A stretch of DNA of 64,000 nucleotides from Bacteroidaceae bacterium (GTDB lineage: Bacteria; Bacteroidota; Bacteroidia; Bacteroidales; Barnesiellaceae_A): the NCBI GenBank assembly GCA_017522135.1, contig JAFXAB010000029.1, positions 3,610 to 67,609 of the forward strand, given 5' to 3'. This document shows positions 10,730-50,755 of the stretch, in pieces. Under the pieces are notes generated by a model that had not been told where the DNA came from, did not search any database, and saw only the letters and a program-made list of their open reading frames with translations. The translations under genes were made by a program, and so were the position numbers. Every line of letters starts with the position of its first letter. The stretch's first letter is position 1.

Positions 10730-10915
10730 TGTGTGTATATTTATGCTGATTTTCTGCAAAATTAGCAAAAGTAATTTTAAATAACAAATATAAAAAGATT
10801 AATTATTTAATAAAAATATTTTGATATGCATACTTGCTCTTGAAAGCATGCTCTTGAAAAGTTATATGAGAGATGTAGAAAATTTGCTATATGTTGTTAT
10901 GAAACTGTGCAATAT

Positions 10916-10955
10916 AAAAAAAACAATGGCCTCGATTGACAGCCATTGTTTTTTT
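10916..10955 (-). terminator. Intrinsic terminator downstream of rho
   Basis: The stem is ACAATGGC (10923-10930) / GCCATTGT (10942-10949). A-runs and T-runs on either side give a U-tract on the minus strand. Confidence 0.75.
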
Positions 10956-10976: not shown

Positions 10977-11477
10977 TTAGTCGTTCATTGATAACAGAAA
11001 CTCTTCGTTTGAAGAAGTACGCTCAAGTCGCTCTTTGAGAAATTCCATCGCCTCTACCGAGTTCATATCGGCGAGATAGCGGCGCAGTATCCACATGCGG
11101 TTGAGTGTCTCTTTGTCGTGTAGGAGGTCGTCGCGGCGAGTACTTGAGGCGTTGATGTCTACTGCCGGGAAGATACGTTTGTTCGACAACTTGCGGTCGA
11201 GTTGCAACTCCATGTTACCTGTTCCCTTAAACTCTTCAAAGATTACTTCATCCATCTTTGAGCCTGTATCGATAAGGGCTGTGGCTATGATGGTGAGGCT
11301 GCCTCCGTTCTCGATATTGCGGGCTGCACCAAAGAAACGCTTGGGCTTGTGCAAGGCGTTGGCATCGACACCACCCGACAATACCTTGCCCGATGCCGGT
11401 GCTACAGTGTTAAAGGCTCGTGCCAATCGTGTGATAGAGTCGAGCAAGATAACTACGTCATGACCGCACTCTACCAT
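10977..11477 (-). CDS. rho: Transcription termination factor Rho, C-terminal fragment (gene interrupted by an in-frame TAA; possible pseudogene, readthrough or sequencing error)
   Basis: The 166-aa fragment [23 protein letters not shown]...[62 protein letters not shown] is the Walker-B to C-terminal part of Rho. It is in the same frame as 11490..13085 and is separated from it only by TAA plus 4 codons. Confidence 0.85.
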
Positions 11478-11489
11478 GCATTTGGCTTT

Positions 11490-13085
11490 TTAAAGTACGA
11501 TATTGGTTATCTTTACGTGGCGTTCGGCTGGTTCGTCAAAGGTAGAGGCTATAACCTCGGCCTTTACGCTGCGCGCCATGTCGGTTACCTCCTCGGGACG
11601 CTCGTCGATAAGTAGTATTATCATGTACACCTCGGGGTGATTTTCTGATATTGCATTGGCAATATCCTTGAGTATTACGGTTTTACCTGTCTTGGGTTGT
11701 GCCACTATCAGACCACGTTGTCCCTTGCCTATGGGCGAGAACATGTCTACTATGCGTGTCGAAAGGTTGCTCGGCTTGCCTCCGGTGAGATTGAATTTCT
11801 CTTGCGGAAACAAAGGGGTAAGGTGGTCGAATGGTACACGGTCGCGAACAAACTCCGGCAATCGACCATTGATGCGTTCTACCTTGGCCAGAGGGAAGTA
11901 TTTTTCTCCCTCTTTGGGCGGACGTATCGAACCCTCTACAACATCTCCGGTTTTCAGTCCGTAGTGCTTTATTTGTGATTGAGATACATATATGTCATCG
12001 GGCGATGTAAGGTAGTTATAGTCGGGCGAGCGAAGGAAACCATATCCGTCGGGCATCATTTCCAGTACACCCGAGCCCATCAGTATATCTTCAAAGTCAT
12101 ACAGACGCTCGCTCGGTATCATATCGTCGCGCAACGACTCTTCATGGCGCATCTCTTCTTGTGCCATGTTGCCGGCCGGCTTGTTGCGCTTGTTATTTTG
12201 TTTATTGTTGTTCTGCTTATTGTTGTAGTTATTGTTTCCACCGTTGTTGTCGCGATTTTGCGGCGTGAATTGTTGCTTGACAATATTGCCGTTCTTGTCG
12301 CGAGAGATAAAGCGAGTGGCTTTGGGGAAAAACGCCGACAAGCCCGGAGTGGGAGGGAGGGGTTGCTCCTGAGGAGTAGTTTCGTCCGATGCATTGTTTT
12401 CAGCCTCGGGGATGACCGGATCGGCTGGTGCGTTCTCTTGAGGCTCGGCTATAGTCTTCTCAACCTCTTTTTCGATTGTTGTATCTTCTTCTTTGATGGC
12501 AACTTTCTCTTCGCGAATTATACGTTTGCGACCGCGGCGAGGTTTCTCCACCTCAACATTGTTGGTTTCGGCCGGTGCAACCTCTTGGGGTTCTTCCTGT
12601 TTCGATTCTTGAGTTGTAGTTGTTGCTTCTTTAACCTCCTCGGTTGCAGGCTCTTCGACCTTTACTTTCTTCTTGCGACCGCGACGAGGTTTCTCTACGG
12701 GTGCTGCCTCTTCGGGGGTAGCCTCTGTTGCCGGAGTACTCTCTGATGCCGGAGTACTCTCTGATGCCTTCTCTTGGGGTGTATTATTTTTTTCTTCTAT
12801 AGCGTTGGGTTGTTCTTCTTTTACGGGTGCAACTTCGGGTTTTTGCACCTCTTTTGCTATCGAAGTTGTCGATTTTTCTTTTTCAACGGGGGTAGGTTGA
12901 GTTATTTTCTTCCTTTTCTTTCCTTCACCACCTTGTTTGCTGGCGCTGATGGCTTGCTCGTCGAGAATAGTATACACCAACTCGTCAATAGCAATATTGT
13001 TGCCGATATTGATACCCAATTGTGTAGCAATCTCTTTTAACTCCGGCAATGTTTTAGCCTCAAGGTCTTTCAAGTAATACATCAT
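11490..13085 (-). CDS. rho: Transcription termination factor Rho, N-terminal fragment (long disordered insertion, RNA-binding domain, Walker A), ending at an in-frame TAA
   Basis: The fragment contains ...[15 protein letters not shown]...[16 protein letters not shown] (CSD-like primary RNA-binding site) and [15 protein letters not shown] (P-loop). It stops at ...[11 protein letters not shown], where E. coli Rho continues ...[12 protein letters not shown]. The probable start is ATG 13085 ([20 protein letters not shown]); the ORF track extends to 13151. Confidence 0.85.
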
Positions 13086-13220
13086 AAATGAATTTTTAGG
13101 GGGCAATGACACACAATCTACTCTACGATTGTTGTTTTTATTGCCTATCAATTAACGGGGATTTCGTTTTTTTTGAGGTAAAGAGGACTCCGAGCGAGCA
13201 CCTCTTGGATTTTTCGTGTG

Positions 13221-15231: not shown

Positions 15232-18200
15232 TTATTTGATTACAACTTTGTGAGCAGTATCACCTATTACAACGATATATACACCTTGTTGCAGCATCGA
15301 TATCTCATTGCGACCGGCTTGCAACTCTACGCTTCGTGTTACACCGCTGGTGGTAGTTATATATGCAACTCGATTGCAAGTCGATTCCACAACAATTGCA
15401 TCACCTGCACTATATACTCTATCTATGGTATATATACGTTTTACATCGGTTGTATTATTTACGTTGCATGAAGAATTGTCAAGGTTGTGAATGGTGATAT
15501 TGCGTGTTGCAAACACAGCATTGTTTATCTCCACAACTCCGTTTTTAAATTTATTTTCGGCTACAACATCTATTGCAAGCAATACCCCGGTATTGTCAGC
15601 TATGGCTGCATTGTCGATAGCAAATGCTGCAATGCGCAACGAACCATCGGCTTGCTCTTTCCACATTACATGGTGGGTCGATGCGAGTCTGTTGCCGAGT
15701 GTTACACCTTGTGCTTTAAGACCTGCGGGCAATATTACATTCATTTGGAACGAAGTATACGGCATATTGTTGTCGAGTACAATTTCTATAGGAGTATTCT
15801 CATCACCACCTACAACGATATCCGATACTTGCAACTTACCCTTATTGCCTTGATAATAGGCAGGAGCCGAAGTACCCTCGTCGCCTAAGATAGTATTGAC
15901 AATACCTACAACGTCGCCCACGTTTATTATACCATCATTGTTCATGTCGGCATTATCCACGCGTTTCATGCCCTCTGTTTCACCCAGTATATAGTTCATG
16001 GTCACAACAGCATCGCTGATATTTACCAACTTGTCATCATTGGCATCACCGGCCAATATATAGTCGGGTTCTTCTTCGCCACTTTCATTGACAAACGATA
16101 CTTTCAGTACAGCGTTCTCGTTTACAGCATCGGTTGTAAATACACCATTTACTACTTGGTTTGTTACATCTTCTTCGCCGTAGTGCACACTACCTATGCT
16201 ATAACCCTCACGAGGCTCTATAAGGAATGTTACAACAGAGTCGGTGGGTACTCGCAAGCTCAGTCCGTCGCCAATGGTAGCATCTATACCGCTTATCTCT
16301 ACAATCTCTTCGTTTTCGGCTGCAGCATAGCGACGTGGTGCGTGATGTTTACCATGATGCTTGTGCCAGTCGCGGTCATACCAGATATGACCGCCGCGAT
16401 GATGTCTCTTGCATCCATGGCCTTCTTTGCAATCGTTACAATCGGCATCTTCCACCTCTACATCAATACTCTTGCGTGTCTCTATAAAGGCACCCCAGTG
16501 AGCCGATATGAGATAATCTACGTGCGATGCTGTAGGATATGAAAGCAAACAATTGTAGTTATCTACATTACTAAAGATTTTATCTCCCGCCTCGGGGGGG
16601 GTGGTTGCATATACCGATATATTGGCAAGCTTTTTACAGTTGGCAAAAGCCGATGAGCCTACCGCTTGCAAAGATGCCGGTAGGTTGAGGGTGGTGATAT
16701 TGCTGCATGACTCAAAGGCACTACTACCAATTGTAGTTAGTTTCTCGCAACCCGACAAGTCTACAAGTGTCATATTCTTACACCCGCTGAATGCCCTATA
16801 TCCTATTGTTTCTATGGTAACTGGGAATGATACATTGCTCAATTGAGCACAATCAGCGAATGTATAACTACCTATCGTTGTCAAGTTCTCAGGTAGTGTA
16901 ATAGACTTTATCTTCTTACAATTACTAAAAGCCGATTGACCTATCGATCCCACACTATTAGGCAATACAACGTCTTGCGCCATATTGCAATCCATGAAGG
17001 CCTCATATCCTATGGACACGAGTCCATCGGGAAATGCAATGCTGTCGCTCAACAATACACAACCGGCAAAAGCTCTATCGCCTATCACCTTACATTGTGT
17101 AGGCAGTACAACACTTTTCAGAGCTCTTTTATTACTGAATGCATCGGTGGGTATTTCATCACATTCGGCATCGCTGAGGTCTATCGAGTAGCACGATGTC
17201 ATGTTGTTTCTCATTACCGAGAAGTCGGTAAGGTTTATTTTGCCATGCACCTTCAGTATAGTAACATTCTTAAGTGCAATACCCTGATTGTCAACATCTA
17301 CAGCCAGGTATCCGGGTTTCGACACGGTTACCTCTACGGCATTGGCCGGATTGATGTCGATAATGTTGTATTCACTCCAATACTCGGCTGCTCGATAAGC
17401 AGCACCACAACCCGAGGGCACGAATATGCACACATCCTCACCAAAGTCGGCACCCGGAAGTTTAGGCGGTACAGTTGCAAGGCATTCAATACTCAATATC
17501 GGACATTGCAAGAAGGTGTTGTTGCCTATCTCGGCAACACTACTGCCGATGGTAACCTTTTGCAATTGATAGCAACACTGAAACACACTTTCTCCTATCG
17601 AAGTGACACTGTTTCCTATAGCAACTTCTGTTAAGCCGGTGCAATCTGAGAAAGCGTGATTACCTATCGAGGTAACACCCTCAGGTATACTAACACTTGT
17701 CAACCCGGTGCAATTATAAAAAGCTTGATCACCTATCGATGTAACACTATTGGGGATAGAAACAGAAGTCAATCCGGTGCAATTATTAAAAGCGTTATCA
17801 CCTATCGAAGTGACACTGTTTCCTATAGCAACTTCTGTTAAGCTGGTGCAAGATAAGAAAGCTCCACTACCTATCGAGGTAACACCCTCAGGTATACTAA
17901 CACTTGTCAACCCGGTGCAATTATCAAAAGCGTATTCACCTATCGAGGTAACACCCTCAGGTATACTAACACTTGTCAACTCGGTGCAATTTGAGAAAGC
18001 ACTACTACCTATCGAGGTAACACCCTCAGATATACTAACACTTGTCAATCCGGTGCAATTTGAGAAAGCGTAATCACCTATCGAAGTTACGCTGTTAGGG
18101 ATAGAAACAGAATTGATACTTTCGCAATTTTTGAATGCATTTTTAGCTATTGATGTAATACTGTCGGGAATAATTAAGTTTATAACCAACTCGTTATTTA

Positions 18201-19179
18201 AATAGAGATTAACCGATGTTGCGCGAGGAAGTTCTGACCATATATCGTTGCAAATAGTAGCTATATTATCTACATAAATATTGCTTATTTTACCATCTGG
18301 AAAAGCGTAATCACCTATCGATGTAACACTATTGGGGATGGTAATTTCAGTCAGTCCTGAGCAACCTTCAAAAGCACAACTCCCTATCGAAGTTACGCTG
18401 TTAGGGATATTGACAGAAGTCAGTCCTGAGCAACTACGGAAAGCACTACTACCTATCGATGTAACACTATTGGGGATGGTAATTTCAGTCAGTCCTGAGC
18501 AACTACGGAAAGCACTACTACCTATCGATGTAACACTATTGGGGATGGTAATTTCAGTCAGTCCTGAGCAACCATAGAAAGCAGACTCACCTATCGATGT
18601 AACACTATTGGGGATAGAAACAGAAGTCAACCCGGTGCAATTATAAAAAGCTTCATAAGCTATCGTGGTAACACCCTCTGGTATACTAACACTTGTCAAT
18701 CCGGTGCAATTATAAAAAGCGTAATTACCTATCCAAGTGACACTGTTTCCTATAGCAACTTCTGTTAAGCCGATACAACCATCAAAAGCTCTATTACCTA
18801 TCGTTAATACACTATTGGGGATAGTGACCGATGTCAACCCGGTGCAATTATAAAAAGCGTAATCACCTATCGATGTAACACCCTCAGGTATACTAACACT
18901 TGTCAACCCGGTGCAATTATAAAAAGCTTGATAACCTATCGAAGTGACACTATAAGTAACTCCTTCATAAGTAACACTCTCAGGTATTACAACCGAACCA
19001 GTGTACATATTTTTTGCGGGCACATTAGAATAATCCTCACCATAATAAATTACTGCAACTCTATTTTTGGCTGTAATTTGATAATAAATACCATCGACTT
19101 CGAAGTCGTGGGCATAGACACCGATACTGCACAACAGGCATGCTATTGCAAGCAGTGATTTTAATAATTTCGTTTTCAT
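15232..19179 (-). CDS. Giant BspA-type LRR surface protein with His-rich segment, dockerin-like module, cohesin-like module and T9SS C-terminal sorting domain
   Basis: 1315 aa with a signal peptide and more than 20 23-aa LRRs (IPNSVTSIGSSAFRSCSGLTEIT...). The His/Cys-rich stretch is CKEGHGCKRHHRGGHIWYDRDWHKHHGKHH. The dockerin-like duplicated Ca-loop/helix is GDANDDKLVNISDAVVTMNYILG...ADMNNDGIINVGDVVGIVNTILG. The cohesin-like module is LQVSDIVVGGDENTPIEIVLDNNMPYTSFQMNVILPAGL.... The CTD tail is ...GVYIVVIGDTAHKVVIK. The stop codon is 12 nt upstream of the next gene. Confidence 0.85.
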   Translation of the reverse strand: MKTKLLKSLLAIACLLCSIGVYAHDFEVDGIYYQITAKNRVAVIYYGEDYSNVPAKNMYTGSVVIPESVTYEGVTYSVTSIGYQAFYNCTGLTSVSIPEGVTSIGDYAFYNCTGLTSVTIPNSVLTIGNRAFDGCIGLTEVAIGNSVTWIGNYAFYNCTGLTSVSIPEGVTTIAYEAFYNCTGLTSVSIPNSVTSIGESAFYGCSGLTEITIPNSVTSIGSSAFRSCSGLTEITIPNSVTSIGSSAFRSCSGLTSVNIPNSVTSIGSCAFEGCSGLTEITIPNSVTSIGDYAFPDGKISNIYVDNIATICNDIWSELPRATSVNLYLNNELVINLIIPDSITSIAKNAFKNCESINSVSIPNSVTSIGDYAFSNCTGLTSVSISEGVTSIGSSAFSNCTELTSVSIPEGVTSIGEYAFDNCTGLTSVSIPEGVTSIGSGAFLSCTSLTEVAIGNSVTSIGDNAFNNCTGLTSVSIPNSVTSIGDQAFYNCTGLTSVSIPEGVTSIGNHAFSDCTGLTEVAIGNSVTSIGESVFQCCYQLQKVTIGSSVAEIGNNTFLQCPILSIECLATVPPKLPGADFGEDVCIFVPSGCGAAYRAAEYWSEYNIIDINPANAVEVTVSKPGYLAVDVDNQGIALKNVTILKVHGKINLTDFSVMRNNMTSCYSIDLSDAECDEIPTDAFSNKRALKSVVLPTQCKVIGDRAFAGCVLLSDSIAFPDGLVSIGYEAFMDCNMAQDVVLPNSVGSIGQSAFSNCKKIKSITLPENLTTIGSYTFADCAQLSNVSFPVTIETIGYRAFSGCKNMTLVDLSGCEKLTTIGSSAFESCSNITTLNLPASLQAVGSSAFANCKKLANISVYATTPPEAGDKIFSNVDNYNCLLSYPTASHVDYLISAHWGAFIETRKSIDVEVEDADCNDCKEGHGCKRHHRGGHIWYDRDWHKHHGKHHAPRRYAAAENEEIVEISGIDATIGDGLSLRVPTDSVVTFLIEPREGYSIGSVHYGEEDVTNQVVNGVFTTDAVNENAVLKVSFVNESGEEEPDYILAGDANDDKLVNISDAVVTMNYILGETEGMKRVDNADMNNDGIINVGDVVGIVNTILGDEGTSAPAYYQGNKGKLQVSDIVVGGDENTPIEIVLDNNMPYTSFQMNVILPAGLKAQGVTLGNRLASTHHVMWKEQADGSLRIAAFAIDNAAIADNTGVLLAIDVVAENKFKNGVVEINNAVFATRNITIHNLDNSSCNVNNTTDVKRIYTIDRVYSAGDAIVVESTCNRVAYITTTSGVTRSVELQAGRNEISMLQQGVYIVVIGDTAHKVVIK
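17547..19002 (-). repeat. In-frame 69-bp tandem repeat array encoding the LRRs
   Basis: The 69-nt period is visible throughout. Units 18421-18489 and 18490-18558 are identical at every base, and neighbouring units (18352-18420, 18559-18627) are diverged copies. Confidence 0.85.
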
Positions 19180-29046: not shown

Positions 29047-32000
29047 ATGAAAATGAGATTACTTGCAATGAGTATGGGCTTTATTGTTGCCATGGCATCA
29101 ATGATGGCCCGGGCCGATGTGACGCTCACCTACAAGGAAAAGTATGGCGACCACATGGGCGTTTCTTCGGCTTGTCAAGCCAAAGATTACTATTTCTACG
29201 ATGCACAAGGTCGTGTAGTACGTCATGTATTCCACACTGCCGGCACATCGGGTCACTTTGAGGTTCAAAATGTCTATTATTACAACTTCGACGACAAAGG
29301 CAACTTGACAAGTGTAGTCAACTATCAATGGCGACCCGCTTATTCCGACTGGTCGTTGAGCGATAGTATTGCGTATGAGTACGACGACAAGGGCAATTGT
29401 ATTGCCGAGATAGGTGGACGCGACACATACAAGTACACCTATGATGAGAATGGTAATATTGTTACCAAAATCGCTTCGGTTACTGCTACCGGTCAAGTAC
29501 TTCAGACATTGACTTACTCCGATTTTGTCCCCGGTGTTGTCAACAAGCCTCGTGCCTATGAGTCGCAAGGTGCTTTCTCCAACTATGCCTATTCAGGCAC
29601 AATGGAGTATGATGCCGCCTATCGTCTTGTGGTAGACGACCGTCTCACTGCCACCGGCTCAAAGATGCAACGCATCGAGTATACCTACGACGAAAAGGGT
29701 GTGTGCACAGCCGAGAAGTGGTATACATCGCCCAGCTGGACTCCCGAGGAAATAGAGGCCGGTAGTGAAGCCGATACATTGTTCTTCAGTCGCGAGATTA
29801 CCCGCACACTCACCGATGGTAAGTACTATCGAGTTGCCGAGCGCGCCAAGGAGGCTGTAGACTTTGACCCCGTCGATTTCAGCCCCATCTATGCATGGGT
29901 CAATCAACCCTCCAACTATCATGAGTATTATGCCGAGACAAATGAGAATACAGCTCCCACTGCATTGAGCCTCTCTAATGCCTCTACTGCCGAATCACCC
30001 AATTCTGTTAAGATTACAGCACAAGCTCCTGCCGGCATGACAGGTGCTCAATACATCATCTGGCGCAACTGGGAGATTGTAGCCACTGTTGAGGCTGTTG
30101 ATGGTGTTATAGAGTATACCGACAGCAATGTGGAGAGTCGCACTCACACCTACTTTGTGCAGACCTACGATCCCCAAACAGGTGCCTACTACAATGTTAC
30201 CGACCTCACTACTATCAATATGTCGGTCTACTTGGCTCCGGTTGTCAATATTCGTCTGGTAGCCGGTCGCAAAGATACTGCTAAGGATGCCATGACAGGT
30301 GTTACTTATGACACATATTATATCACACTCGAGTGGGATGCTCCTGCATGTGACTATCAGGTGAAAACTTACCAAATCTTCCAAAAACCCTTTGCAATGC
30401 CTGTAGCAACCGTTGAGGGTGATGTGTGCCGTGTTGAGTTGAACATGCCCGATGAAGAGACTGCCGATATCCGCATCGATGCTGTCTACGAATTGGGTAC
30501 AGTTACAGGCCAATATGTTACATTCAATTGGGATAGATCTGAGGACTTTGAGGGTGAGCAACCCGCCGATGTGTTGACTCTTGTTAAGGAAGATCATGGT
30601 GGCGAACTCATCAACAACCTTTACAATGCCGACAACAACCTGTATCGTGTCAAGAACTTGATGGGTACAAGTAGCGGTTACGGACCCAACTACCAATACT
30701 ATTACAACTACGAGAATGGATTGCTCAGCGAGTACTACTTTATCCAATACAAAGAAATGGGTGTGTGGACCGATCCCAAAGATCGCACCATATATGAGTA
30801 TGACGAGCAAGGTCGTCTCGTAAGAAAAGAGAGCCTCTATACCTACAACGATATGTATGAGTATACCTACGATGAACAAGGTCGCCTCGTGTCGTATACC
30901 AAGTATGGTAAGACCGACCGTAACAATCCCGATGCCGAGTACGATAAGCTTTATCACACAGTGAATTATAGCGAATTTGATGCCAATAACAATCCCTTGC
31001 GCTCCGATTATATCGACCACCTCTATGCCACCGGTACATACTATGTATTGTATACCTACGACGAGCAAGGTCGTGTGCTTGTAGAAGAATCTTGGAAACC
31101 CAATCTCAATACCGAAGACGAGAACGATAGAATACCGAACTATAAGTATGAAAATACATACGACGAGAACGGCATAATAGTCGACCGCATCAAGTCAAAT
31201 AAGGATTGGGAGTCGGATGCCTTTGTGTATGCTTCGCGCGAAACCCGCACCAAGGTGTCGGATACACAATACGATTTCCAAAGCTACAACTACGACGTGT
31301 ATGACCTCGTATGGGCTCCCTTTAGAAGTCACACCGAATATTATGCAGTGCTTGATGGTGCATACGCTCCTCTCGACCTCAAGGTCGATTATATCAGTAA
31401 TGTCAACTTTACCAACGCTGTACAATTGACTTGCACAGTTCCTGCCAAGGAAGTGCCCAATGCTCAATATATCGTATGGTACGATTGGCAACCGGTCGAT
31501 ACCATTGCTCCGGTAAACGGTAAGATTACCTATATTGCCGAGAACTTGCCCAATGGTCGCGAAATAGAGTTCCTCGTTCAGTCGTACGATGCTGTCAACG
31601 ATGTTATGTACAACGTATCTAATGCCGTAACAGCCAGCTATACAGTCGAGTTGCCTCCTGTTACCAACTTGCGTTATGTAAAAACTACCGAAGGCGAGTT
31701 TGCCGATGCACAAGGCTCTATGCACCCCGCCTATTGGGTACACTTCGAGTGGGATGCTCCCGAGACCGACCTCGCAATTGTGCGCTACAATGTGTATGAG
31801 CAAGGTTGGGCTGTTCCTTTGAGTACTACAACCAACACTTGCGACAGCCTCTCGGTATACCGTGAGAAGAACTTCGACTCTCCCGATCAACAACGCAATA
31901 TCGTTGTAGAGGTATCGGTAGTATACGAAATAGGCGAGTCGGAGCTTGTATCGCAATCGTTCAATGTCGAGCACTCGGGCGTTGAGGATGTTGCTGTAAG

Positions 32001-32196
32001 ACGTGTATATGTCGATGGCGACTACCTCTATATCGACGGTGTTGCCGATGTGGTTATTTACAATACCGCAGGTGTTGTCGTTGAAAACCGTAGCAATGTT
32101 GCCGGTGTCAACCTTTCGGCGTTGCACAACGGTGTTTATGTTGCGGTTGTGAGAATTGCCGATAAGTTGCAAATTGTAAAGTTTGTTCGCAATTAA
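29047..32196 (+). CDS. T9SS cargo, class A: YD-like repeat / FN3-like module protein (tandem paralog 1)
   Basis: 1049 aa with a signal peptide and YD-like repeats (YKYTYDENGNIVTK, YEYDDKGNCIAE, YEYDEQGRLVRKE, YEYTYDEQGRLVSY, YTYDEQGRVLVEE). The block [YD region + two FN3-like modules] occurs twice. The CTD tail is VVIYNTAGVVVENRSNVAGVNLSALHNGVYVAVVRIADKLQIVKFVRN. Confidence 0.8.
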   Translation: MKMRLLAMSMGFIVAMASMMARADVTLTYKEKYGDHMGVSSACQAKDYYFYDAQGRVVRHVFHTAGTSGHFEVQNVYYYNFDDKGNLTSVVNYQWRPAYSDWSLSDSIAYEYDDKGNCIAEIGGRDTYKYTYDENGNIVTKIASVTATGQVLQTLTYSDFVPGVVNKPRAYESQGAFSNYAYSGTMEYDAAYRLVVDDRLTATGSKMQRIEYTYDEKGVCTAEKWYTSPSWTPEEIEAGSEADTLFFSREITRTLTDGKYYRVAERAKEAVDFDPVDFSPIYAWVNQPSNYHEYYAETNENTAPTALSLSNASTAESPNSVKITAQAPAGMTGAQYIIWRNWEIVATVEAVDGVIEYTDSNVESRTHTYFVQTYDPQTGAYYNVTDLTTINMSVYLAPVVNIRLVAGRKDTAKDAMTGVTYDTYYITLEWDAPACDYQVKTYQIFQKPFAMPVATVEGDVCRVELNMPDEETADIRIDAVYELGTVTGQYVTFNWDRSEDFEGEQPADVLTLVKEDHGGELINNLYNADNNLYRVKNLMGTSSGYGPNYQYYYNYENGLLSEYYFIQYKEMGVWTDPKDRTIYEYDEQGRLVRKESLYTYNDMYEYTYDEQGRLVSYTKYGKTDRNNPDAEYDKLYHTVNYSEFDANNNPLRSDYIDHLYATGTYYVLYTYDEQGRVLVEESWKPNLNTEDENDRIPNYKYENTYDENGIIVDRIKSNKDWESDAFVYASRETRTKVSDTQYDFQSYNYDVYDLVWAPFRSHTEYYAVLDGAYAPLDLKVDYISNVNFTNAVQLTCTVPAKEVPNAQYIVWYDWQPVDTIAPVNGKITYIAENLPNGREIEFLVQSYDAVNDVMYNVSNAVTASYTVELPPVTNLRYVKTTEGEFADAQGSMHPAYWVHFEWDAPETDLAIVRYNVYEQGWAVPLSTTTNTCDSLSVYREKNFDSPDQQRNIVVEVSVVYEIGESELVSQSFNVEHSGVEDVAVRRVYVDGDYLYIDGVADVVIYNTAGVVVENRSNVAGVNLSALHNGVYVAVVRIADKLQIVKFVRN

Positions 32197-32225
32197 AAGC
32201 CCATAGATACGATTAGTATCTTTCC

Positions 32226-32268
32226 AAGGTCGCATTGGTGTAAGTACAATGCGACCTTTTGTATTTTT
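32226..32268 (+). terminator. Intrinsic terminator between the two class-A paralogs
   Basis: A 12-bp stem AAGGTCGCATTG (32226-32237) / CAATGCGACCTT (32247-32258) is followed by TTGTATTTTT. Confidence 0.8.
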
Positions 32269-32350
32269 GGGGATTATTCTTGGTTGTCAATAAATGTTAA
32301 AATGTAATCTTAAAAAACGCCTCTTTTATATATAATATATAATCTTTATA

Positions 32351-32358
32351 TATCTTTG
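32351..32358 (+). promoter_or_regulatory. Candidate -7 box (TATCTTTG) for the 32396 gene
   Basis: The plus-strand sequence TATCTTTG lies 38 nt upstream of ATG 32396. Confidence 0.45.
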
Positions 32359-32395
32359 CGCCAAGAAACTATATTTTTAACCTAATAGTAAGAAC

Positions 32396-35300
32396 ATGAA
32401 GAAAAATCTACTCGCAAAGGGGTTGTGTGCATTGATGTTTGCATCGGCCCTTCAGGTGAATGCCGATCCTACTATGGTTGCCTCTTACAAGATAGGCGAC
32501 AGTATGGGAGCCGAGGGTGTTACACTCAAGTCTGTTAATCTTTATGACGGACAAAACAAAGTAATCCGCACATACAACGTAGCTACCGACTATGCCGGAG
32601 ATTCATACACCGAGACTGTTGTTCGTTATGAATACAACGAGCAAGGCTTGTTGGTAAAAGATCGTGCCTCGCAATATCGTCCTGCCTATGGCGACTGGGT
32701 CGATGGCGATGAAAACGTATATCAATACGACGAGCAAGGTCGTCTCATCCAAATTGACGATGCCAATCGTGGTTATAAATATACCTACGATGAGAATGGT
32801 AATTTGACCAACGAGAAGTATTACTCAAACAGTACTACCACCACCATTCAAGACATTAGCTACTTCGACTTCGATGCCAATGGCAATCCCGCACGCAGCG
32901 AGTCGGACGGTTATTATTCGGACTATCGCTTCGACGGTGTATATACTTATGATGCACAAGGTCGTTGCATAGACATCATGCGCCATTGTGTTGCCGGTAC
33001 AGTACACAGCCGCGACACTTACGAGTTTGACGAGGCCGGTATCTTGACTCACAACTACAAGTACATGTCGGCTTATGGTGCCGGTGGTCGCGAAGGTGGT
33101 CAAGTAGGTGGTACTAAGGATACATTGCGTTACGACCAACACATTGAGCGTGTAAACCTCGGTAACGGTTGGTATCAAAAGACTGTGTGGACTTGGACAT
33201 ACTACATCAGCCAATGGACTAAGGGTAGCACTGTCTTCAACGAGCTCTATGTAAACCTCGATGGTGCTTATGCACCCCGCAACATCGTTGCCGAGAATAT
33301 CTCTACCGACGAGCAACCCAATACTGCCAAGGTTACAGCCGACGTTCCCGCTACACTCCCCGTAGAGGCTACAAGCTACATCATCTGGCGTAACGGTATG
33401 ATGGTAGGTGTTGTAGAGGCTGTCAATGGCAAGATCGAATTTGTAGAGTCAAACCTTGCCAACGACACTTACGAATACATCGTTCAAGCCTACGATGCAG
33501 CCAACGATGTATACTACAACTGCTCTGATATTGCTACAGTTGCCATTACAGTACCCCTCAGCCCCGCCAAGAACGTGCGCGTAGTGGGTGGTTATCATGG
33601 CACATACGAAGATCCCCAAGCCGGTGCTTATGAGACATTCTTTATCAAGCTCGCATGGGATGTAGACCCCTGTGACGATACTATTCTCGGTTACAAAGTA
33701 TGGCAATATCCTTGGGCTTATCCCGCTGTAGAGGTTACAGGTGACGTGAGAAATTGTGAGTTGAATATGGCCGACGATGAGGCTGTAAATGTTCGCGTCG
33801 ATGTTGTGTATGAGCACGGTGTGAAAGAGGGTGAGTACGTACCCTTGTTCTGGGACAACAGCGAGGACTTCGAGGGCGAGCCTATGCCCAAGTATTACCT
33901 CACTTATGAGAAAAACTATGGCGACCACATGGGTACTGCCGGTGCTTCAAGCATCAACTACTACATCTACGACAACAACAACAATATCTCTCGTCGTGTA
34001 GACTATGGCTATCAAACCGATGGTACTGCCGTGCCTACATACCACTACTTCTATGACTATAACAGCAATGGTCAGCTCATTTCTGAGTTCTACCGCCAAA
34101 TGAATGCTCTTGGCGAGTGGGGTAAGAACAAAATGACTTATGTCTATACATACGATATGTTTGGCCGCTTGGCTACCAAAGAAGATACAACATCAAATCG
34201 CTTGTATGAGTACTCATACGATGCTCAAGGTCACCTTGTAACTGTTACCGATAAGGGTAAGAGCTGGGGTGCAGAGGAGTATGACAAGTTGTATTCGACT
34301 ACTACCTACAGCCAATTTGACGAGAACGGCAATCCTGCCTATGCCGAGTTTGTACACGCTATGTATGCAAGCAGCAGCTACAATACTACTTATACATACG
34401 ACAGCGAAGGTCGCATCCTCGTTCAAGAGTCGCGTACTCCCGAAGGTATGGCTTATGAAAAACTCGAGTTTACTTATGATAAATATGGTGTAGAGACTTT
34501 AAGAGTACGTTATACTCCCTGGTATGACGAGAAGACTTATCAAGCTACCGAGCGTTTTGTGATGTCTACTCGCACCGTACGCGAAGCACAAGAGGGTATG
34601 GTATACAAACGTTACGAAGAGAACTACGACCTCAAGAGCGAAACTTGGTCTAACAACGGTCGTTATACTATGGAGACCTACTCACCCCTCAACGGTGGCT
34701 TGACTCCTCAAAATCTTGTTGTGACAGATGCCTCTACTCCCGAGTCGCCCAACACAATCGAGATCGAATGTAACTTCCCCAAAATCAAACTTGCCAACGC
34801 TCAATACATCATCTGGCGTGGTTGGATACCCGTTGACACTGTTACTGCTACAGCCGCTCAAGGTATCATCCGCTTCCGTGATGTGAATGTAGAGAACGGT
34901 ACTTACGAGTACATCGTGCAAACATACGATGCCGCTACTCAACAATCGTTCAACGCTACAGCTCCCGTTGTATTTACATTGGAAGTTCAATTGGATCCCA
35001 TCAGCAACCTTCGCTACACAGGTACTACCGAAGGCGAATACAAAGATGCCGAGCTCGGCTCGATGCCCGCATATTGGATACACTTCGCATGGGATGCTCC
35101 CCAAACTGCATTGCCCATCCTCAACTACAACATCTATCAAGATGGTTTCAAGATTCCTGTATCGCAAACTACCAACACCAACGACAGCGTATGGGTTTAT
35201 CGTGAGGATGAGGAAAATATTGCCAACCAAACTACTACTACAAGCGTAGAGGTGAAAGTTGTATACTCTTTCGGTGAGTCGGAAGGTGTGAGTCAAGAAT

Positions 35301-35536
35301 TCGTACTTGAACTTGGTGCTCTCGAAAATGCTACTCTCGAAGGCTCGGCTTATGTAGCCGGTAAGACTCTCTTTACTGAGCCCGATGCCAACGTTGTTGT
35401 ATACAACACTGCCGGTGTTGCTGTAGTTACCTACAACAACAAGCAACAATACGACCTTGGTACATTACCCGCAGGTGTATATCTTGCCGTTGTGAAAGTA
35501 GGCGAAAAAGCTCAAGTTGTAAAACTTGCCCTTTAA
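32396..35536 (+). CDS. T9SS cargo, class A: YD-like repeat / FN3-like module protein (tandem paralog 2)
   Basis: 1046 aa, alignable by eye end-to-end with the 29047 protein (YKYTYDENGNLTNE, YQYDEQGRLIQID, YEYSYDAQGHLVTV, YTYDSEGRILVQE). The CTD tail is VVVYNTAGVAVVTYNNKQQYDLGTLPAGVYLAVVKVGEKAQVVKLAL. Confidence 0.8.
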   Translation: MKKNLLAKGLCALMFASALQVNADPTMVASYKIGDSMGAEGVTLKSVNLYDGQNKVIRTYNVATDYAGDSYTETVVRYEYNEQGLLVKDRASQYRPAYGDWVDGDENVYQYDEQGRLIQIDDANRGYKYTYDENGNLTNEKYYSNSTTTTIQDISYFDFDANGNPARSESDGYYSDYRFDGVYTYDAQGRCIDIMRHCVAGTVHSRDTYEFDEAGILTHNYKYMSAYGAGGREGGQVGGTKDTLRYDQHIERVNLGNGWYQKTVWTWTYYISQWTKGSTVFNELYVNLDGAYAPRNIVAENISTDEQPNTAKVTADVPATLPVEATSYIIWRNGMMVGVVEAVNGKIEFVESNLANDTYEYIVQAYDAANDVYYNCSDIATVAITVPLSPAKNVRVVGGYHGTYEDPQAGAYETFFIKLAWDVDPCDDTILGYKVWQYPWAYPAVEVTGDVRNCELNMADDEAVNVRVDVVYEHGVKEGEYVPLFWDNSEDFEGEPMPKYYLTYEKNYGDHMGTAGASSINYYIYDNNNNISRRVDYGYQTDGTAVPTYHYFYDYNSNGQLISEFYRQMNALGEWGKNKMTYVYTYDMFGRLATKEDTTSNRLYEYSYDAQGHLVTVTDKGKSWGAEEYDKLYSTTTYSQFDENGNPAYAEFVHAMYASSSYNTTYTYDSEGRILVQESRTPEGMAYEKLEFTYDKYGVETLRVRYTPWYDEKTYQATERFVMSTRTVREAQEGMVYKRYEENYDLKSETWSNNGRYTMETYSPLNGGLTPQNLVVTDASTPESPNTIEIECNFPKIKLANAQYIIWRGWIPVDTVTATAAQGIIRFRDVNVENGTYEYIVQTYDAATQQSFNATAPVVFTLEVQLDPISNLRYTGTTEGEYKDAELGSMPAYWIHFAWDAPQTALPILNYNIYQDGFKIPVSQTTNTNDSVWVYREDEENIANQTTTTSVEVKVVYSFGESEGVSQEFVLELGALENATLEGSAYVAGKTLFTEPDANVVVYNTAGVAVVTYNNKQQYDLGTLPAGVYLAVVKVGEKAQVVKLAL

Positions 35537-35577
35537 GATAACTGTGGTAAACAATAACTAATTATTTATATGTGTAT

Positions 35578-35602
35578 GAGTGTGCGCTTGATGCGCACAC
35601 TC
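35578..35602 (+). terminator. GC-rich hairpin between class-A and class-B genes (terminator/attenuator-like, no U-tract)
   Basis: A perfect 10-bp stem GAGTGTGCGC / GCGCACACTC with loop TTGAT. It lies 42 nt after stop 35536 and 21 nt before ATG 35623. Confidence 0.4.
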
Positions 35603-35622
35603 GTACCTATTTGAAACATTAT

Positions 35623-37515
35623 ATGAAAAATTTATTCTCTGTTCTCTTATTCTCGGCAGCCATAGCTCTTCCTGCTGTGGCCGATGATATTTATTTTGAG
35701 GCTGACTTTGAAAAAGGAATTCCATCGACCTTCAAGCTCATTGACCGAGATGAAAATCCTACCAAGAGTGGCGTATCTCGCATCGACCTATCCAAAGGCT
35801 CTTGGGCTACAGGACAGTATGACAAGGGCTGTACTGCAGCAATGAGTTCGGCTTTTTGTACCTATGACTACCCTGTCGAAGACTGGATGATTTTGCCACA
35901 AATCAACATCAAAGATGCCATGGCTGTGCTTGCATGGGATGCCATGTCGGTACACTACGACTTCCGCGAAGATTATAAAGTAATGATTTCGCAAAGCGGA
36001 AATTCTACTTCCGACTTTGTCGAAGTTTATTCTGTTCAAGAAGAAGATTATTTCATTCGTCGTCATGCCATCTCTTTGGCCGACTATGAAGGAAAAGATA
36101 TATATATTGCCTTTGTGCACACAGGTCAAGACAAGTTCTTGCTTGGTATCGACAATATCAAGGTGGGTGAGTTCAGAGGCGATTACACCTTTACCAATAC
36201 TACCGATGTAACTGCCAAAGGTGGTCAAAACATTACTATCAGCGGTACTATTCGCAACATGTCGAGCGAGGACTACTTCGAGCCTGTTGTTAAGGTAGGC
36301 GACGTGGAGTACACATGGACCGGCACAGTTATGCCTACTCTCTGGGAGGTAGGTGAGGAGGTTCCTTTCTCATTCAGCGTTCCCGCCCCCGAGGAGGGTA
36401 CTGTCGACTACACTGTAGGTGTTAAGTATTCGCGCAACGATAGCGAAATGGTGTGGAGCACTACCGATACTGTATATTGCTCGGCTTTCCCCCGCAATAT
36501 CCTTGTTGAGAAGTTTACAGGTACTTGGTGCAACAACTGTCCCGAAGGTACTATCACATTGCACAAGTATGAGCAACGCTTGCGCAATCGTATCATCACC
36601 GTCGAGGGTCACTGTGCATCGGGCGCATCGGAGCCTATGGCCGATGCCACCTATCACAATGGTCTTGCATATTGGATTCACAACCTCCCCGGTATGATTT
36701 ACGACCGTCGTTTGGGTATGATTTCGCAACAAGCCAAGGATGATGGCAATGTATATAAAGCCATGCGTAAGCCTGTTACTGCCGAGATTATCCCCACTGT
36801 AAAGTACACAGCCGAAGGCAGCTTCGAGGTGAGCAGTATAGTACGATTCTCGCAAGAGTATGACAACTCGGGCGACCGCTACCGTGTAGGTTACATTGTT
36901 ACAGAAAACGTTGTACATCAACCCGATAATTCCAAGTATTCGCAATCAAACAGTTGCCAATATGCAAGTTGTCGCGAGTACAATTTCTTGCCCAGCTCTA
37001 TTCCCGCCGAGATGGCATATTTCCACAACGTAGGTCGTGGCGATGTCACTGCTTTTGACGGTGTTCCTCTTTCGCTCCCCAAGGAGACTCTCACTGCCTA
37101 TACCGATTATCAAGTGATAGATACCGTCGCCATGCCTTCAACTCCGTTGTTTGACAGCGAGTATGTATACGACCCCAAGAACATCTCTATCACAGCGGTT
37201 CTTATCTTTACTCGCGACAAGAGTGTCATGGCTGCATGTCGTGTCAATACCGATGATATCGACTGGAGTGCCGGCGTAGCCGACAACTTGCAAGATGCCG
37301 AGCGTTGCGATGTGAAAGCTGCCGATGGTACAGTATACGTGAGCAACCTCGATAGCCGTGCCACTGTGCGTGTATATGCTGTAGACGGTCGCATGTTGGC
37401 TCAAGCTCACGGTGCACGTGTGGTTGCTGTCGATGTTGCGCAATATACCGGTGTCGCTATCGTTTCGATTGAAACCGAAAATGGTGTTGTTACTGAAAAA
37501 ATCTTAATCAAATAA
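35623..37515 (+). CDS. T9SS cargo, class B: choice-of-anchor-J-like N-terminal domain + thioredoxin-like C-x-x-C (Omp28-related-like) protein
   Basis: I set the start at ATG 35623 (MKNLFSVLLFSAAIALPAVA signal peptide) rather than the ORF-track GTG 35572, which lies inside the hairpin. The central motif is ILVEKFTGTWCNNCPEG. The CTD tail is TVRVYAVDGRMLAQAHGARVVAVDVAQYTGVAIVSIETENGVVTEKILIK. Confidence 0.75.
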   Translation: MKNLFSVLLFSAAIALPAVADDIYFEADFEKGIPSTFKLIDRDENPTKSGVSRIDLSKGSWATGQYDKGCTAAMSSAFCTYDYPVEDWMILPQINIKDAMAVLAWDAMSVHYDFREDYKVMISQSGNSTSDFVEVYSVQEEDYFIRRHAISLADYEGKDIYIAFVHTGQDKFLLGIDNIKVGEFRGDYTFTNTTDVTAKGGQNITISGTIRNMSSEDYFEPVVKVGDVEYTWTGTVMPTLWEVGEEVPFSFSVPAPEEGTVDYTVGVKYSRNDSEMVWSTTDTVYCSAFPRNILVEKFTGTWCNNCPEGTITLHKYEQRLRNRIITVEGHCASGASEPMADATYHNGLAYWIHNLPGMIYDRRLGMISQQAKDDGNVYKAMRKPVTAEIIPTVKYTAEGSFEVSSIVRFSQEYDNSGDRYRVGYIVTENVVHQPDNSKYSQSNSCQYASCREYNFLPSSIPAEMAYFHNVGRGDVTAFDGVPLSLPKETLTAYTDYQVIDTVAMPSTPLFDSEYVYDPKNISITAVLIFTRDKSVMAACRVNTDDIDWSAGVADNLQDAERCDVKAADGTVYVSNLDSRATVRVYAVDGRMLAQAHGARVVAVDVAQYTGVAIVSIETENGVVTEKILIK

Positions 37516-37539
37516 TTCTCAAACTAAATTCAAAAACCA

Positions 37540-40500
37540 ATGAAAAAATTATCTATTCTTTTTGCTGCTTTACTTGTGACAATGAGTGCTGTGGCCGAGA
37601 AAGGAGCTATGTTCCTTACCAGCCCTACAGCCTTTCAAGTAATGTCGTTGTCGCCCAATGGTAAATGGGCTTGCGGTATCTTGGGCGATGGATACTCTAT
37701 CAACCAAGGTCTGCTCTGGAACCTTGAGACAAGTGAGATTACCTATCTCTCTACTACCGACGAGTCCAAAGCCTTTGCTGTTACCGACGAAGGTGTTGTA
37801 TGTGGTGCTTACACCGACTATACCCTTCATCCCGCAGGTTTGGGCGTGTATGTAGCCGGTATCTACAAAGATGGCGAGTGGCATCGTCTCGACAACTCGG
37901 GCTTCGAGGATGAGGGCGTGCTTATGTACGGTTCTGAGGCTTCTGCTATCTCGGCCGATGGTCGTGTAGTGGTAGGTTATGTACAAAACGGTCCTTCTGA
38001 TAGCAAGCTTGCACCCGCTCGTTGGGTAGATGGCAAGCTCGATGCTATTCTCCCTTACGAGAGAGCCGGTGTATGCTACGCTATTACTCGCGATGGTTCT
38101 AAAGTTGCAGGTTGGAGCTATGAAACTTTCATAGACGAGAAAGGTGAAGATGCTTACAATCGTTCAATCTCTTTGTGGACAGCTGATGGCTTAGAGTATC
38201 TCAGCCCCGTGCCTACAGCATTCGAAGCCGGTCGTTTCTTCTCGGCCGACGGTAGCAAACTTCTTTGTGAGTCTTTCGGTCACAAATTTATTTATGACTT
38301 AACAACTCAAGAAAAAACTGAAGTACCTTGGTTACATCCCATGTGCTGGAGCCAAAGTGTATTCTATGTGAATAACGATGGTATTGTGTTGGGTGGTGAG
38401 GAATTCCAAGACGATGCTACCGGTGCAAGAGGTTTCTATGGCTATGTATTTGATTCAAAGGCCAACAAAATGCAAAAATTTGATGAGTGGTTGAAGAACG
38501 AATATGGTGCCGAGATTGATTCGGAGTCTTTCATGACTCAACATGCTGTTGCCATGAGCGACGATGCCAAGACATTTGCTATCTTGGGCTATCCTATGGA
38601 AAACGGTATTCCCATGGGTGATTGGGCTTCTATGATTATCAAACTCGACCAAGAGATTACCTATTGCGAACCCTCTTTGCTCAAAGCCGAGAAACTCCTC
38701 GGTGTGAACAACGTGCGTCTTACTTGGGGTGCTCCCTTGATGAATGCCGAGAATGTATTGGGCTATCGCGTATATCGCAACAACGAGATGGTTGAAGAAA
38801 TCTCGGCCGACTTGCTTGCTTATATGGATGCCAACCTTGCCGATGGCGAGTATACTTACGCTATCTCTGCAATCTATGAAGGCGAAACAGGCGATATCGT
38901 TGAGTCGGCACCATGCTCGGCTGTAAATGTTGTTGTGGCTAAAGATCCTCTCAACAAAGCTCAAAACATCGAGTATCGTTCAGCCAACTACAACGACATG
39001 CGTTTACGTTGGAATGCTCCCGCTTCTAACCTCCCCTCGGTTAAATATTATGACCTTGAGAATGCTACACTCACCGGATTTGGTGGTGGTATCATCTCTT
39101 TCTTGGTTGGTATCAAATTGCCTACCGACATGGTAGCAATCTATAGCGAAACTCACTCTATCGCACGCGTTGGTTTCTTCCCCATCAACAAAGAGGCTAT
39201 TTATACAATCCGCGTTATTGTTGATGGTACTGAAAAGGCTGCTAAGACTTTGGATACCAATACTTTGAATTTGGGTGAGGTTAATCTTGTAGACCTCGAT
39301 ACTCCTGTAGCTTTCGATGCCTTGAGCGATGTACTCGTTGTAGTTGATGTTGATGCCTCTAACTTTACAGTTCCTTCAAACGAGGTTATTGCAGCTCAAT
39401 ATGGCGTAGCTACTCCCGGTTATTCCGACCTCTTGCGTCAAGCCAGTGAGACCGAGATGTACTCTCTCTACGAGGCCAGCAAGGGTACTCCCGCCGAAAT
39501 GTCTGTTTCTTGGATTATCTCGGCTATCCTCTCCGATGGTACCAACGGTGCCGACAGCGATGTTATCTTGGGTTATGACATCTACCGCAATGGCGAGATG
39601 ATTGCCTCTGTTGAGGAGCAAAAATATGTTGACGAGAATGTAAGCGAAGGTTCTTATACATACGGTATCGTTGCTAAGTATCTCAATGGCGAGTCGGAGC
39701 CTGCCAACGTACAAATCAATCACGTATGCAAGCCCGAGTCTTTGAAGGCTATCGACGAGGTTGAGGTTTATGCCGGTACTTCAGAGTTGGCTGCTTTCTG
39801 GCAAGCTCCTATTAAGAATGACGAGTCGGTTGTTTCTTACGCTATGGGTGCTAACTCAGGCAAAGGTATCAGCTTGAGCGGTGCTACCGATCTTATCGAG
39901 TATACAGTTGCTCATGCTTATCCCTACTCGGTATTGAACTGGTACGAAGGTTATACTATCGATGCTCTCCGTTTCTATCCCTCGGCCGAGGCAACCTTTG
40001 CTATCGCTCTCGAAGTAAACGGTGTGGACCATGAGATGGTTGTATTGGGTCAAGTTGGCGAAGAGAACGGCTATCAACTCAATACTTGGAACAATGTTAA
40101 GCTCGAAAATCCCTACACCATCAAGAATGGTGACTACATCCGCGTGAAACTTTTGTGTACCGATGTTGACCCCACAACTTATCCTATCACTCTCGACGAC
40201 CAAGTAGGTGCTATGGGCGTTTCTGACTTGTATAGCTGGGACTACTACGGAAATTACAGCTCGGCTATGTCGGATGGTGGTCACTCTAAGGGTAACTGGA
40301 TGATTGGTATGATTGTTTCTAACGACAATACCGAACTTCTCCCCGTTGATCACTACACAGTAGTTCTCGATGGTGAAGAGCGTGACGAAGTTATCACTGA
40401 GCCCGAATTTAAGGCTGAGGGTTACAACTGGAGCGATGGCTCAACTCACCGCATCAAAGTAAACACTGTGTACAACTTCAATGGCGAGAATGTTACTGCC

Positions 40501-40767
40501 GAAGGTAAGCAAGTTATATTTAACGTTAAGGCCGGTGTTGAAAACATCGAAGTAAACCTCGTTAACGTTTATCCCAACCCCGCTACTTCTTACATCAACG
40601 TAGAAGGTGCTGTTGAGAAACTTGCTTTGTATGATATGAACGGTCGCCTTGTAGCCGAAACTGCTGCCAACACTATCGATGTTACAGCTCTCGCTGCCGG
40701 CAACTACTTGCTCAATATCACTAACAACGGCAACGTACGCACTGTTAAGGTACTCGTTGTTCGCTAA
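37540..40767 (+). CDS. T9SS cargo, class C: propeller-like (HAF-like) repeat + FN3-like module protein (tandem paralog 1)
   Basis: 1075 aa with signal peptide MKKLSILFAALLVTMSAVA. The N-terminal repeats are LSPNGKWACGI, ISADGRVVVGY, ITRDGSKVAGW, FSADGSKLLCE. FN3-like segments are present (VLGYRVYRNNEMV, ILGYDIYRNGEMI). The classical CTD is VNVYPNPATSYINVEG...GNYLLNITNNGNVRTVKVLVVR. It starts 24 nt after the class-B gene. Confidence 0.8.
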   Translation: MKKLSILFAALLVTMSAVAEKGAMFLTSPTAFQVMSLSPNGKWACGILGDGYSINQGLLWNLETSEITYLSTTDESKAFAVTDEGVVCGAYTDYTLHPAGLGVYVAGIYKDGEWHRLDNSGFEDEGVLMYGSEASAISADGRVVVGYVQNGPSDSKLAPARWVDGKLDAILPYERAGVCYAITRDGSKVAGWSYETFIDEKGEDAYNRSISLWTADGLEYLSPVPTAFEAGRFFSADGSKLLCESFGHKFIYDLTTQEKTEVPWLHPMCWSQSVFYVNNDGIVLGGEEFQDDATGARGFYGYVFDSKANKMQKFDEWLKNEYGAEIDSESFMTQHAVAMSDDAKTFAILGYPMENGIPMGDWASMIIKLDQEITYCEPSLLKAEKLLGVNNVRLTWGAPLMNAENVLGYRVYRNNEMVEEISADLLAYMDANLADGEYTYAISAIYEGETGDIVESAPCSAVNVVVAKDPLNKAQNIEYRSANYNDMRLRWNAPASNLPSVKYYDLENATLTGFGGGIISFLVGIKLPTDMVAIYSETHSIARVGFFPINKEAIYTIRVIVDGTEKAAKTLDTNTLNLGEVNLVDLDTPVAFDALSDVLVVVDVDASNFTVPSNEVIAAQYGVATPGYSDLLRQASETEMYSLYEASKGTPAEMSVSWIISAILSDGTNGADSDVILGYDIYRNGEMIASVEEQKYVDENVSEGSYTYGIVAKYLNGESEPANVQINHVCKPESLKAIDEVEVYAGTSELAAFWQAPIKNDESVVSYAMGANSGKGISLSGATDLIEYTVAHAYPYSVLNWYEGYTIDALRFYPSAEATFAIALEVNGVDHEMVVLGQVGEENGYQLNTWNNVKLENPYTIKNGDYIRVKLLCTDVDPTTYPITLDDQVGAMGVSDLYSWDYYGNYSSAMSDGGHSKGNWMIGMIVSNDNTELLPVDHYTVVLDGEERDEVITEPEFKAEGYNWSDGSTHRIKVNTVYNFNGENVTAEGKQVIFNVKAGVENIEVNLVNVYPNPATSYINVEGAVEKLALYDMNGRLVAETAANTIDVTALAAGNYLLNITNNGNVRTVKVLVVR

Positions 40768-40790
40768 TTAGTTCGATATATTACATCTTT

Positions 40791-40828
40791 GGAGGTGCGT
40801 TCCCATAAGGGGATGCACCTCCTTTTTT
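40791..40828 (+). terminator. Intrinsic terminator between the two class-C paralogs
   Basis: The stem is GGAGGTGC (40791-40798) / GCACCTCC (40815-40822), followed by TTTTTT. Confidence 0.85.
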
Positions 40829-40959
40829 AATTATATGCAGTACACTGCAAACTTGTTACCTTTATTTACTCACTTTTTCGATATTTTTATCTACCTTTAC
40901 AACCACATGAAACATCAATTGCATTTATCTTAACCATATTGAAACATATCATTAAAACA

Positions 40960-50301: not shown

Positions 50302-50555
50302 TATAGAGAACACCGAGGTATAGTTGTCATATATCTCGGTTTCTTTCTTTTGTGCCGGTATCTATACAATCTCTACTTTGTGTTTGTTGCAGAACCGTGC
50401 AATATATACGCAATATGTAAGCGAAATGATTGAATATGTTAAATAAATAAAAAACAGTGGATATTTATGATGCTTTAAAACATGTTTTTCGTTCCTTATT
50501 GCTAATTTTGCCGAGTGTTTTTCATAGTATTAGATTAAGATTAAGGTTAACGAAG

Positions 50556-50587
50556 ATTGGTTGTCGGGAGGCAATCAATTTTTTTAT
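50556..50587 (+). terminator. Orphan intrinsic terminator in the clpB-dxr intergenic region
   Basis: The stem is ATTGGTTG (50556-50563) / CAATCAAT (50572-50579) with one G-U pair and loop TCGGGAGG, followed by T7 (50580-50586). It lies ~45 nt downstream of a TAATTTTG box at 50503-50510. Confidence 0.55.
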
Positions 50588-50755
50588 ACCCACATCATCC
50601 CTCTGTTTCATGTAGCTAATATCCAATCGGGTAGATTTTTAGTGCCAATTTAAAAACTTTTTTAAAAGTTGCCTTTACGGCAGGTTTCTTTATGGTCATC
50701 CCGAAAATTTTGCGTACATTTGTAGTTTGTAACAAATAAGCACTTTCATAACGAC

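Follow-up and report, generated by a model that had tools for sequence, protein, structure and literature searches.

In the conditional-lethal amber rho mutants of Escherichia coli, a nonsense codon in the gene for the terminator Rho must be suppressed for the cell to be viable, and these laboratory alleles are sustained by suppressor tRNAs. Among gut Bacteroides, Rho has been reported to be essential in Bacteroides thetaiotaomicron (PMC13269538), whose protein, BtRho, belongs to the atypical 'Type 2' Rho proteins and contains a disordered insert (Krypotou et al.; PMC13269538; typology in PMC11347177). Metagenome-assembled genomes (MAGs) offer a further point of comparison, as they contain 'internal stop' pseudogenes, most of which are frameshifts or truncations at contig ends. 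The rho gene described here resembles such pseudogenes in that a single disruptive base falls in a conserved housekeeping gene that has no protein accession and is intact in relatives; unlike most of them, it is broken by a substitution, a less common type of Illumina error.

We analysed a 64-kb stretch of DNA (referred to as the window in the rest of the text) from an NCBI MAG with the label "Bacteroidaceae bacterium" (locus-tag prefix IKJ79_, 80,328-bp contig). The rho frame lies on the minus strand at 10977-13151 and comprises 725 codons interrupted by a single TAA at 11490-11492, in the context CAC GTA AAG ATA ACC AAT ATC GTA CTT TAA AAA GCC AAA TGC ATG GTA GAG. Counted from the ATG ATG at 13085, where the start is also called in the sister assemblies, the gene has 702 codons. 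The open reading frames on either side of the stop (11490-13151 and 10977-11477) share one frame. The upstream part (11493-13085, 531 codons) encodes an N-terminal helix bundle, an insert, the RNA-binding domain, the Walker A GKT and the DERPEE motif with its catalytic Glu, while the downstream part (10977-11489) consists of 170 codons followed by the natural TAA at 10977-10979 and encodes the Walker B motif LLDS, the Q-loop, the R-loop and the Arg finger. The first ATG past the internal stop is only 15 nt away (11475-11477, MVECG...), and a gene caller would place the beginning of a C-terminal fragment of 166 aa there. A hairpin (AACAATGGC...GCCATTGTT) followed by a T run is located at about 10915-10950 on the minus strand, some 30 nt past the terminator codon of rho; it resembles an intrinsic terminator and is conserved in L001, a sister assembly from the same species.

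A phmmer search against solved structures aligned the gene product with residues 47-415 of E. coli Rho (PDB 1pv4, E = 1e-151), and this alignment is colinear across the stop. Counting along it places the TAA in the Glu248 column, after the strand that terminates in ...STFDEP and before DVIILLDS, the strand of Walker B. The Walker A/P-loop (K181-T185) and the catalytic E211/R212 (E. coli numbering) are encoded upstream of the stop, whereas Walker B (D265), the Q-loop, the R-loop and the Arg finger are encoded downstream, and all of these elements align with their E. coli counterparts. Profile searches gave the same picture. The N-terminal fragment matches positions 3-244 of the NCBIfam Rho model NF006886 / TIGR00767 (413 positions) with 325.6 bits and the C-terminal fragment positions 250-413 with 308.6 bits, so that the two together form a colinear match over the whole length of this equivalog model. 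Pfam recognizes Rho_N, Rho_RNA_bind and ATP-synt_ab, the last one in two halves, the first of which (positions 3-66) is in the upstream part. The uninterrupted frame for a whole protomer that is expected of a rho gene is thus broken in the window copy by the TAA.

The gene product also resembles BtRho, with its N-terminal helix bundle, a charged, N/Q-rich insert some 300 residues long, the RNA-binding domain and the RecA-type ATPase; the same architecture is encoded intact, in 702 aa, by the sister assemblies. Located between the N-terminal domain and the RNA-binding domain, the insert is rich in K, E, P and T (residues ~50-340) and then in N and Q, has no Pfam match, and is presumed to be disordered. 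E. coli Rho lacks such an insert and has Arg252 where the strain group of the window has Cys. What sets the window copy apart from BtRho is the TAA in the ATPase domain. These observations bear out the description given in the sequence-only reading of this DNA, which had reported an essential rho interrupted by an in-frame TAA at a conserved Glu, with both halves in one frame and the split falling between Walker A and Walker B.

The neighbours of rho encode Kbl (MBR3951137), a DEAD helicase (MBR3951138), ArgR (MBR3951139) and a 578-aa hypothetical protein (MBR3951140, IKJ79_04430). These accessions are consecutive and leave none for rho between ArgR and IKJ79_04430, from which we infer that rho was annotated as a pseudogene by the submitter. 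All sister contigs share the gene order of this locus (LRR gene, hypothetical gene, rho, argR, DEAD helicase, kbl). The LRR/dockerin-like gene at 15232-19179 contains a repeat patch that assembles differently from one assembly to another (1315 aa in the window versus 1292 aa in L085), and in L086 a 1-nt deletion at 16594 splits it into 871 and 438 aa.

Comparison with close relatives, which the sequence-only reading had called for, was made with 13 independent assemblies of the same species that cover the stop site (L001, L085-L089 and L107-L113). They come from ENA, Logan and NCBI (GCA_937885535.1), share from 98.9% to ~99.99% DNA identity with the window, and were found by looking up neighbouring proteins that are exactly identical; all allele counts were read from them. 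Every one of the 13 carries GAA (Glu) at the site of the stop. Ten of them cover rho from end to end, and in each of these the encoded Rho is intact (702 aa in nine cases, 696 aa in L001); in the other three the frame is unbroken through the stop site until the contig edge ends it. The stop allele is therefore present in one of 14 assemblies of the species. Two related species (L003 and L084) have GAA at this position too.

The Glu is also well conserved at greater distances. Among the matches listed, the Glu248 column is E in 126 of 126 homologues; of 64 wider Bacteroidota genomes, again among the matches listed, 58 have E and 6 have N there. The relatives from the genome-contig collection that were used for the conservation count belong to other genera and have Rho proteins of at most 87% identity among the matches listed. 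The 166 aa encoded downstream of the first ATG past the stop are identical to those of another species with only 81% DNA identity, which shows strong purifying selection on this part of the protein.

The exact DNA pattern with N at the stop base had no match in the genome-contig or metagenome-contig collections; under that exact string, the species is absent there. In a collection of 15 billion proteins that includes Logan assemblies of runs carrying the strain of the window, neither the 166-aa C-terminal product nor the 531/530-aa N-terminal product was found in any other same-species assembly. Exact look-up did not find the 702-aa intact Rho or the Glu-repaired haplotype of the window in this collection either, and it is for this reason that the allele frequencies were read through the neighbouring genes.

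To see how the window departs from its closest relative, we used the sister assembly ERZ27256862:k141_91608, of which three pieces (L085, L091 and L101) tile positions 7483-60301 (52.8 kb) of the window. Leaving out the repeat patch of the LRR gene (18340-18960, 69-nt period), exactly three differences were counted over this span, and no other assembly covering these positions shares any of the three window alleles. The first is the stop itself, a G-to-T change on the coding strand at 11492 (A on the plus strand) that turns GAA into TAA. The second, at 12904, converts AAA into ATA (12903-12905), replaces Lys by Ile in GKKRKKK, a motif at the start of the insert, and breaks a run of seven A found in 12 of 12 other covering assemblies. 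The third is a synonymous transition in dxr (CTG to TTG, 51236), which looks like a genuine SNP, so that the assembly does stand for a slightly distinct strain. Downstream of the stop, rho shows no difference at all from the assemblies of the same strain group.

Two of the three private alleles thus lie in rho, a gene that makes up 4% of the span compared. Each of these two is non-synonymous and, read on the coding strand, a transversion to T. The chance of two hits out of three is ~0.005 for rho and ~0.04 for any single gene. Moreover, rho is the most polymorphic gene of the compared region, with about 6 of the ~27 variant events within the group. An 18-nt indel at 12729-12746, corresponding to one ASESTP repeat unit of the insert, distinguishes the strain group of the window (702 aa) from L001 (696 aa). 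Elsewhere in the window, five very large genes of about 650-1075 aa form a run at 29047-44121 on the plus strand; their copies on sister contigs give faint matches to RHS-repeat, RGI_lyase and Por_Secre_tail (type IX secretion signal). Within this run, L094 has five clustered SNPs (35257-35304) and L093 a 16-nt deletion (35618-35633).

Four residues from the stop, the codon at 11478-11480 separates two strain groups. It is TGC (Cys) in L085-L089, L105, L106 and L109, that is, at eight loci on six distinct contigs labelled XIEF21/ERZ272568xx, and CGC (Arg) in L001, L107, L108 and L110-L113. The corresponding column of E. coli Rho, Arg252, is Arg in 126 of 126 homologues among the matches listed. 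The Cys, which the window has in EKAK[C], is a real, non-conservative polymorphism, since it is common to the whole strain group, unlike the stop, which is private.

Taken together, the relatives favour a simple explanation: the stop is probably an error of consensus or assembly in a single short-read MAG, or else a minor allele that does not represent the population, and the organism probably makes a normal Rho. With GAA in 13 of 13 sister assemblies, and an intact rho at the same syntenic locus in each of those that span the gene, the stop is unlikely to be a biological feature of the organism. The T at 11492 is observed to be private among 14 assemblies; it would be an artefact of assembly or sequencing, or else a minor allele that the assembler selected, and hence a wrong or unrepresentative consensus base of an unpolished MAG. 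The organism itself would carry GAA and produce an ordinary full-length 702-aa Rho of the Bacteroidota type, in which case no mechanism would have to be explained, be it recoding, a split enzyme or pseudogenization in a lineage. An unfiltered error would land on a stop fairly often, as ~4.1% of all single-base substitutions in the rho coding sequence create one.

Labels of the sister contigs (XIEF21-1 with SAMN158300xx numbers; Logan runs SRR125292xx-SRR125293xx) suggest, as the origin of the data, the work of Xie et al. on the ruminant gut (PMC8199421), in which NovaSeq 150-bp reads were assembled with MEGAHIT both as single samples and as co-assemblies. The strain was seen in runs that include SRR12529277, SRR12529279, SRR12529305, SRR12529307 and SRR12529308; if that work is the source, the raw reads belong to PRJNA657455. 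The word 'polish' is not mentioned in that study (PMC8199421). The high polymorphism of rho and the 18-nt repeat indel between the strain groups would favour bubbles in a de Bruijn graph. Some observations nevertheless speak against an error. A contig of about 80 kb suggests a reasonable depth, and Illumina assemblies of good depth rarely contain substitution errors. In addition, randomly placed errors would rarely put two of three private bases in rho. This clustering may reflect either a local assembly problem or a real rho-mutant sub-lineage.

Broken rho genes were encountered in two other assemblies. Both belong to other species and yield a 166-aa 'MVECG' fragment (L084 and L115, the two others that were inspected). 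In L084 the lesion is a 26-nt deletion (~960-1040) on a contig covered 3.6x, and in L115 it is a frameshift (~1300-1330) on a contig covered 2.2x. Both lesions are located a few tens of nucleotides upstream of the same ATG, at which the start of the 166-aa frame is called, and both are very likely assembly errors due to low coverage. The fragment recurs because any lesion just upstream of that ATG yields the same open reading frame. We thus rejected the idea of a recurrent split rho, given that these cases involve other species, indels and contigs at 2.2x and 3.6x; rather, the combination of low coverage and indels indicates that broken rho genes in metagenome assemblies of this clade track poor assembly.

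The strongest competing explanation, although an unlikely one, is that the TAA is real and arose very recently in a single natural sub-lineage of this Bacteroidaceae species from the gut, as an allele that leaves rho null or strongly hypomorphic. Either the allele would be tolerated, Rho being dispensable or compensated in the species, or it would be a transient, doomed variant that dominated one sample. In favour of this explanation are the excess of private changes in rho, both of which alter the coding sequence (E to stop and K to I), and the general concentration of variant events in this gene. The strain group already had an unusual Arg-to-Cys substitution in the immediate vicinity of the stop, and the genuine appearance of the private dxr allele argues for some real divergence of the sampled strain. 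A narrower version, in which the TAA is not only real but dominant in the gut population of one animal, amounting to a natural rho-null or readthrough-dependent Bacteroidaceae lineage that arose on the background of the ATPase-domain Arg-to-Cys change together with the Lys-to-Ile change at the start of the insert, is in our estimation less probable still.

Several lines of evidence weigh against a real allele. The 13 assemblies with GAA include some that are ~99.99% identical to the window and come from samples labelled as one study, and the fragment products encoded by the stop allele were seen in no other assembly of the species. The stop removes Walker B, the Q-loop, the R-loop and the Arg finger, and a product truncated in this way would be a full null, with Rho function abolished. 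Given that Rho is reported to be essential in B. thetaiotaomicron, a real nonsense allele should be purged by selection, and one of the type seen in the window would not be expected to persist. Finally, the absence of any change downstream of the stop, along with the identity of the C-terminal 166 aa with those of another species, leaves no sign of decay. Instead of the several lesions, relaxed constraint or lesion shared among relatives that would mark a pseudogene of the lineage, rho has one lesion that is private and is followed by none.

It is very improbable that the window copy is a paralogue in the course of being lost while a second, intact rho resides elsewhere in the genome, an option raised by the sequence-only reading. 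Two rho genes are known in some bacteria (PMC11347177), and the 64 kb examined here represent only a part of the genome. However, the copy in the window occupies the conserved rho-argR-DEAD helicase-kbl locus, where every spanning sister assembly has an intact and strongly conserved rho. A single nonsense base without other damage, followed by undecayed sequence, does not constitute decay, and a tblastn search of the 64-kb window for the second copy envisaged in that reading found none.

As for a functional arrangement of the interrupted gene, the two halves are in frame and undamaged, and the ATG located 15 nt past the stop could in principle serve for re-initiation. Yet TAA terminates 25 of the 31 genes of the window, including kbl, the LRR gene and rho itself (...LLSMND*), in agreement with what had been claimed for kbl and the LRR gene, and the TAA in rho is the sole internal stop in 18,325 codons of these 31 genes. 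An alternative genetic code with TAA reassigned was rejected on these counts. A suppressor tRNA or a recoding RNA inside the window is likewise unsupported: we found no tRNA gene in the 64 kb and no Rfam element near the stop, and the 100 nt from the stop fold no better than shuffled sequences (z = -1.35). The situation therefore differs from that of the E. coli amber mutants in that nothing in the window points to a suppressor. The one Rfam match of the whole window, at ~50.5 kb, is FopS, a Bacteroidetes sRNA family (50515-50588 on the plus strand, 68.8 bits against a gathering score of 56), located between clpB and dxr. Furthermore, a recoding site would be expected to keep its stop in relatives, which instead encode one polypeptide with GAA in all 13 same-species assemblies and Glu in all 126 homologues among the matches listed, and the cut would run through a single RecA fold, with Walker A and the catalytic Glu left on one side and Walker B and the Arg finger on the other. 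That UAA is read through or suppressed, or that re-initiation gives 531-aa and 166-aa products that reassemble, is accordingly very improbable, the least probable of all the readings considered. The description in the sequence-only reading thus held throughout and the error it allowed for is favoured by the relatives, while nothing came to light in support of readthrough or reassociation.

On the assemblies compared here, the stop is a singleton of one MAG rather than a property of the species, and as such it is ordinary. The practical value of the finding is that of a quality flag, as at least one, and probably two, bases of rho in this assembly are doubtful; the gene is best read as intact, with Glu at the stop and Lys at 12903-12905. 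If the TAA were real, Rho would be conditionally dispensable or compensated in the gut, in a family where it is regarded as essential. A genuine stop would then mean that nature has knocked out a terminator whose essentiality is reported for a model gut Bacteroides, and would bear on how dispensable Rho is in vivo.
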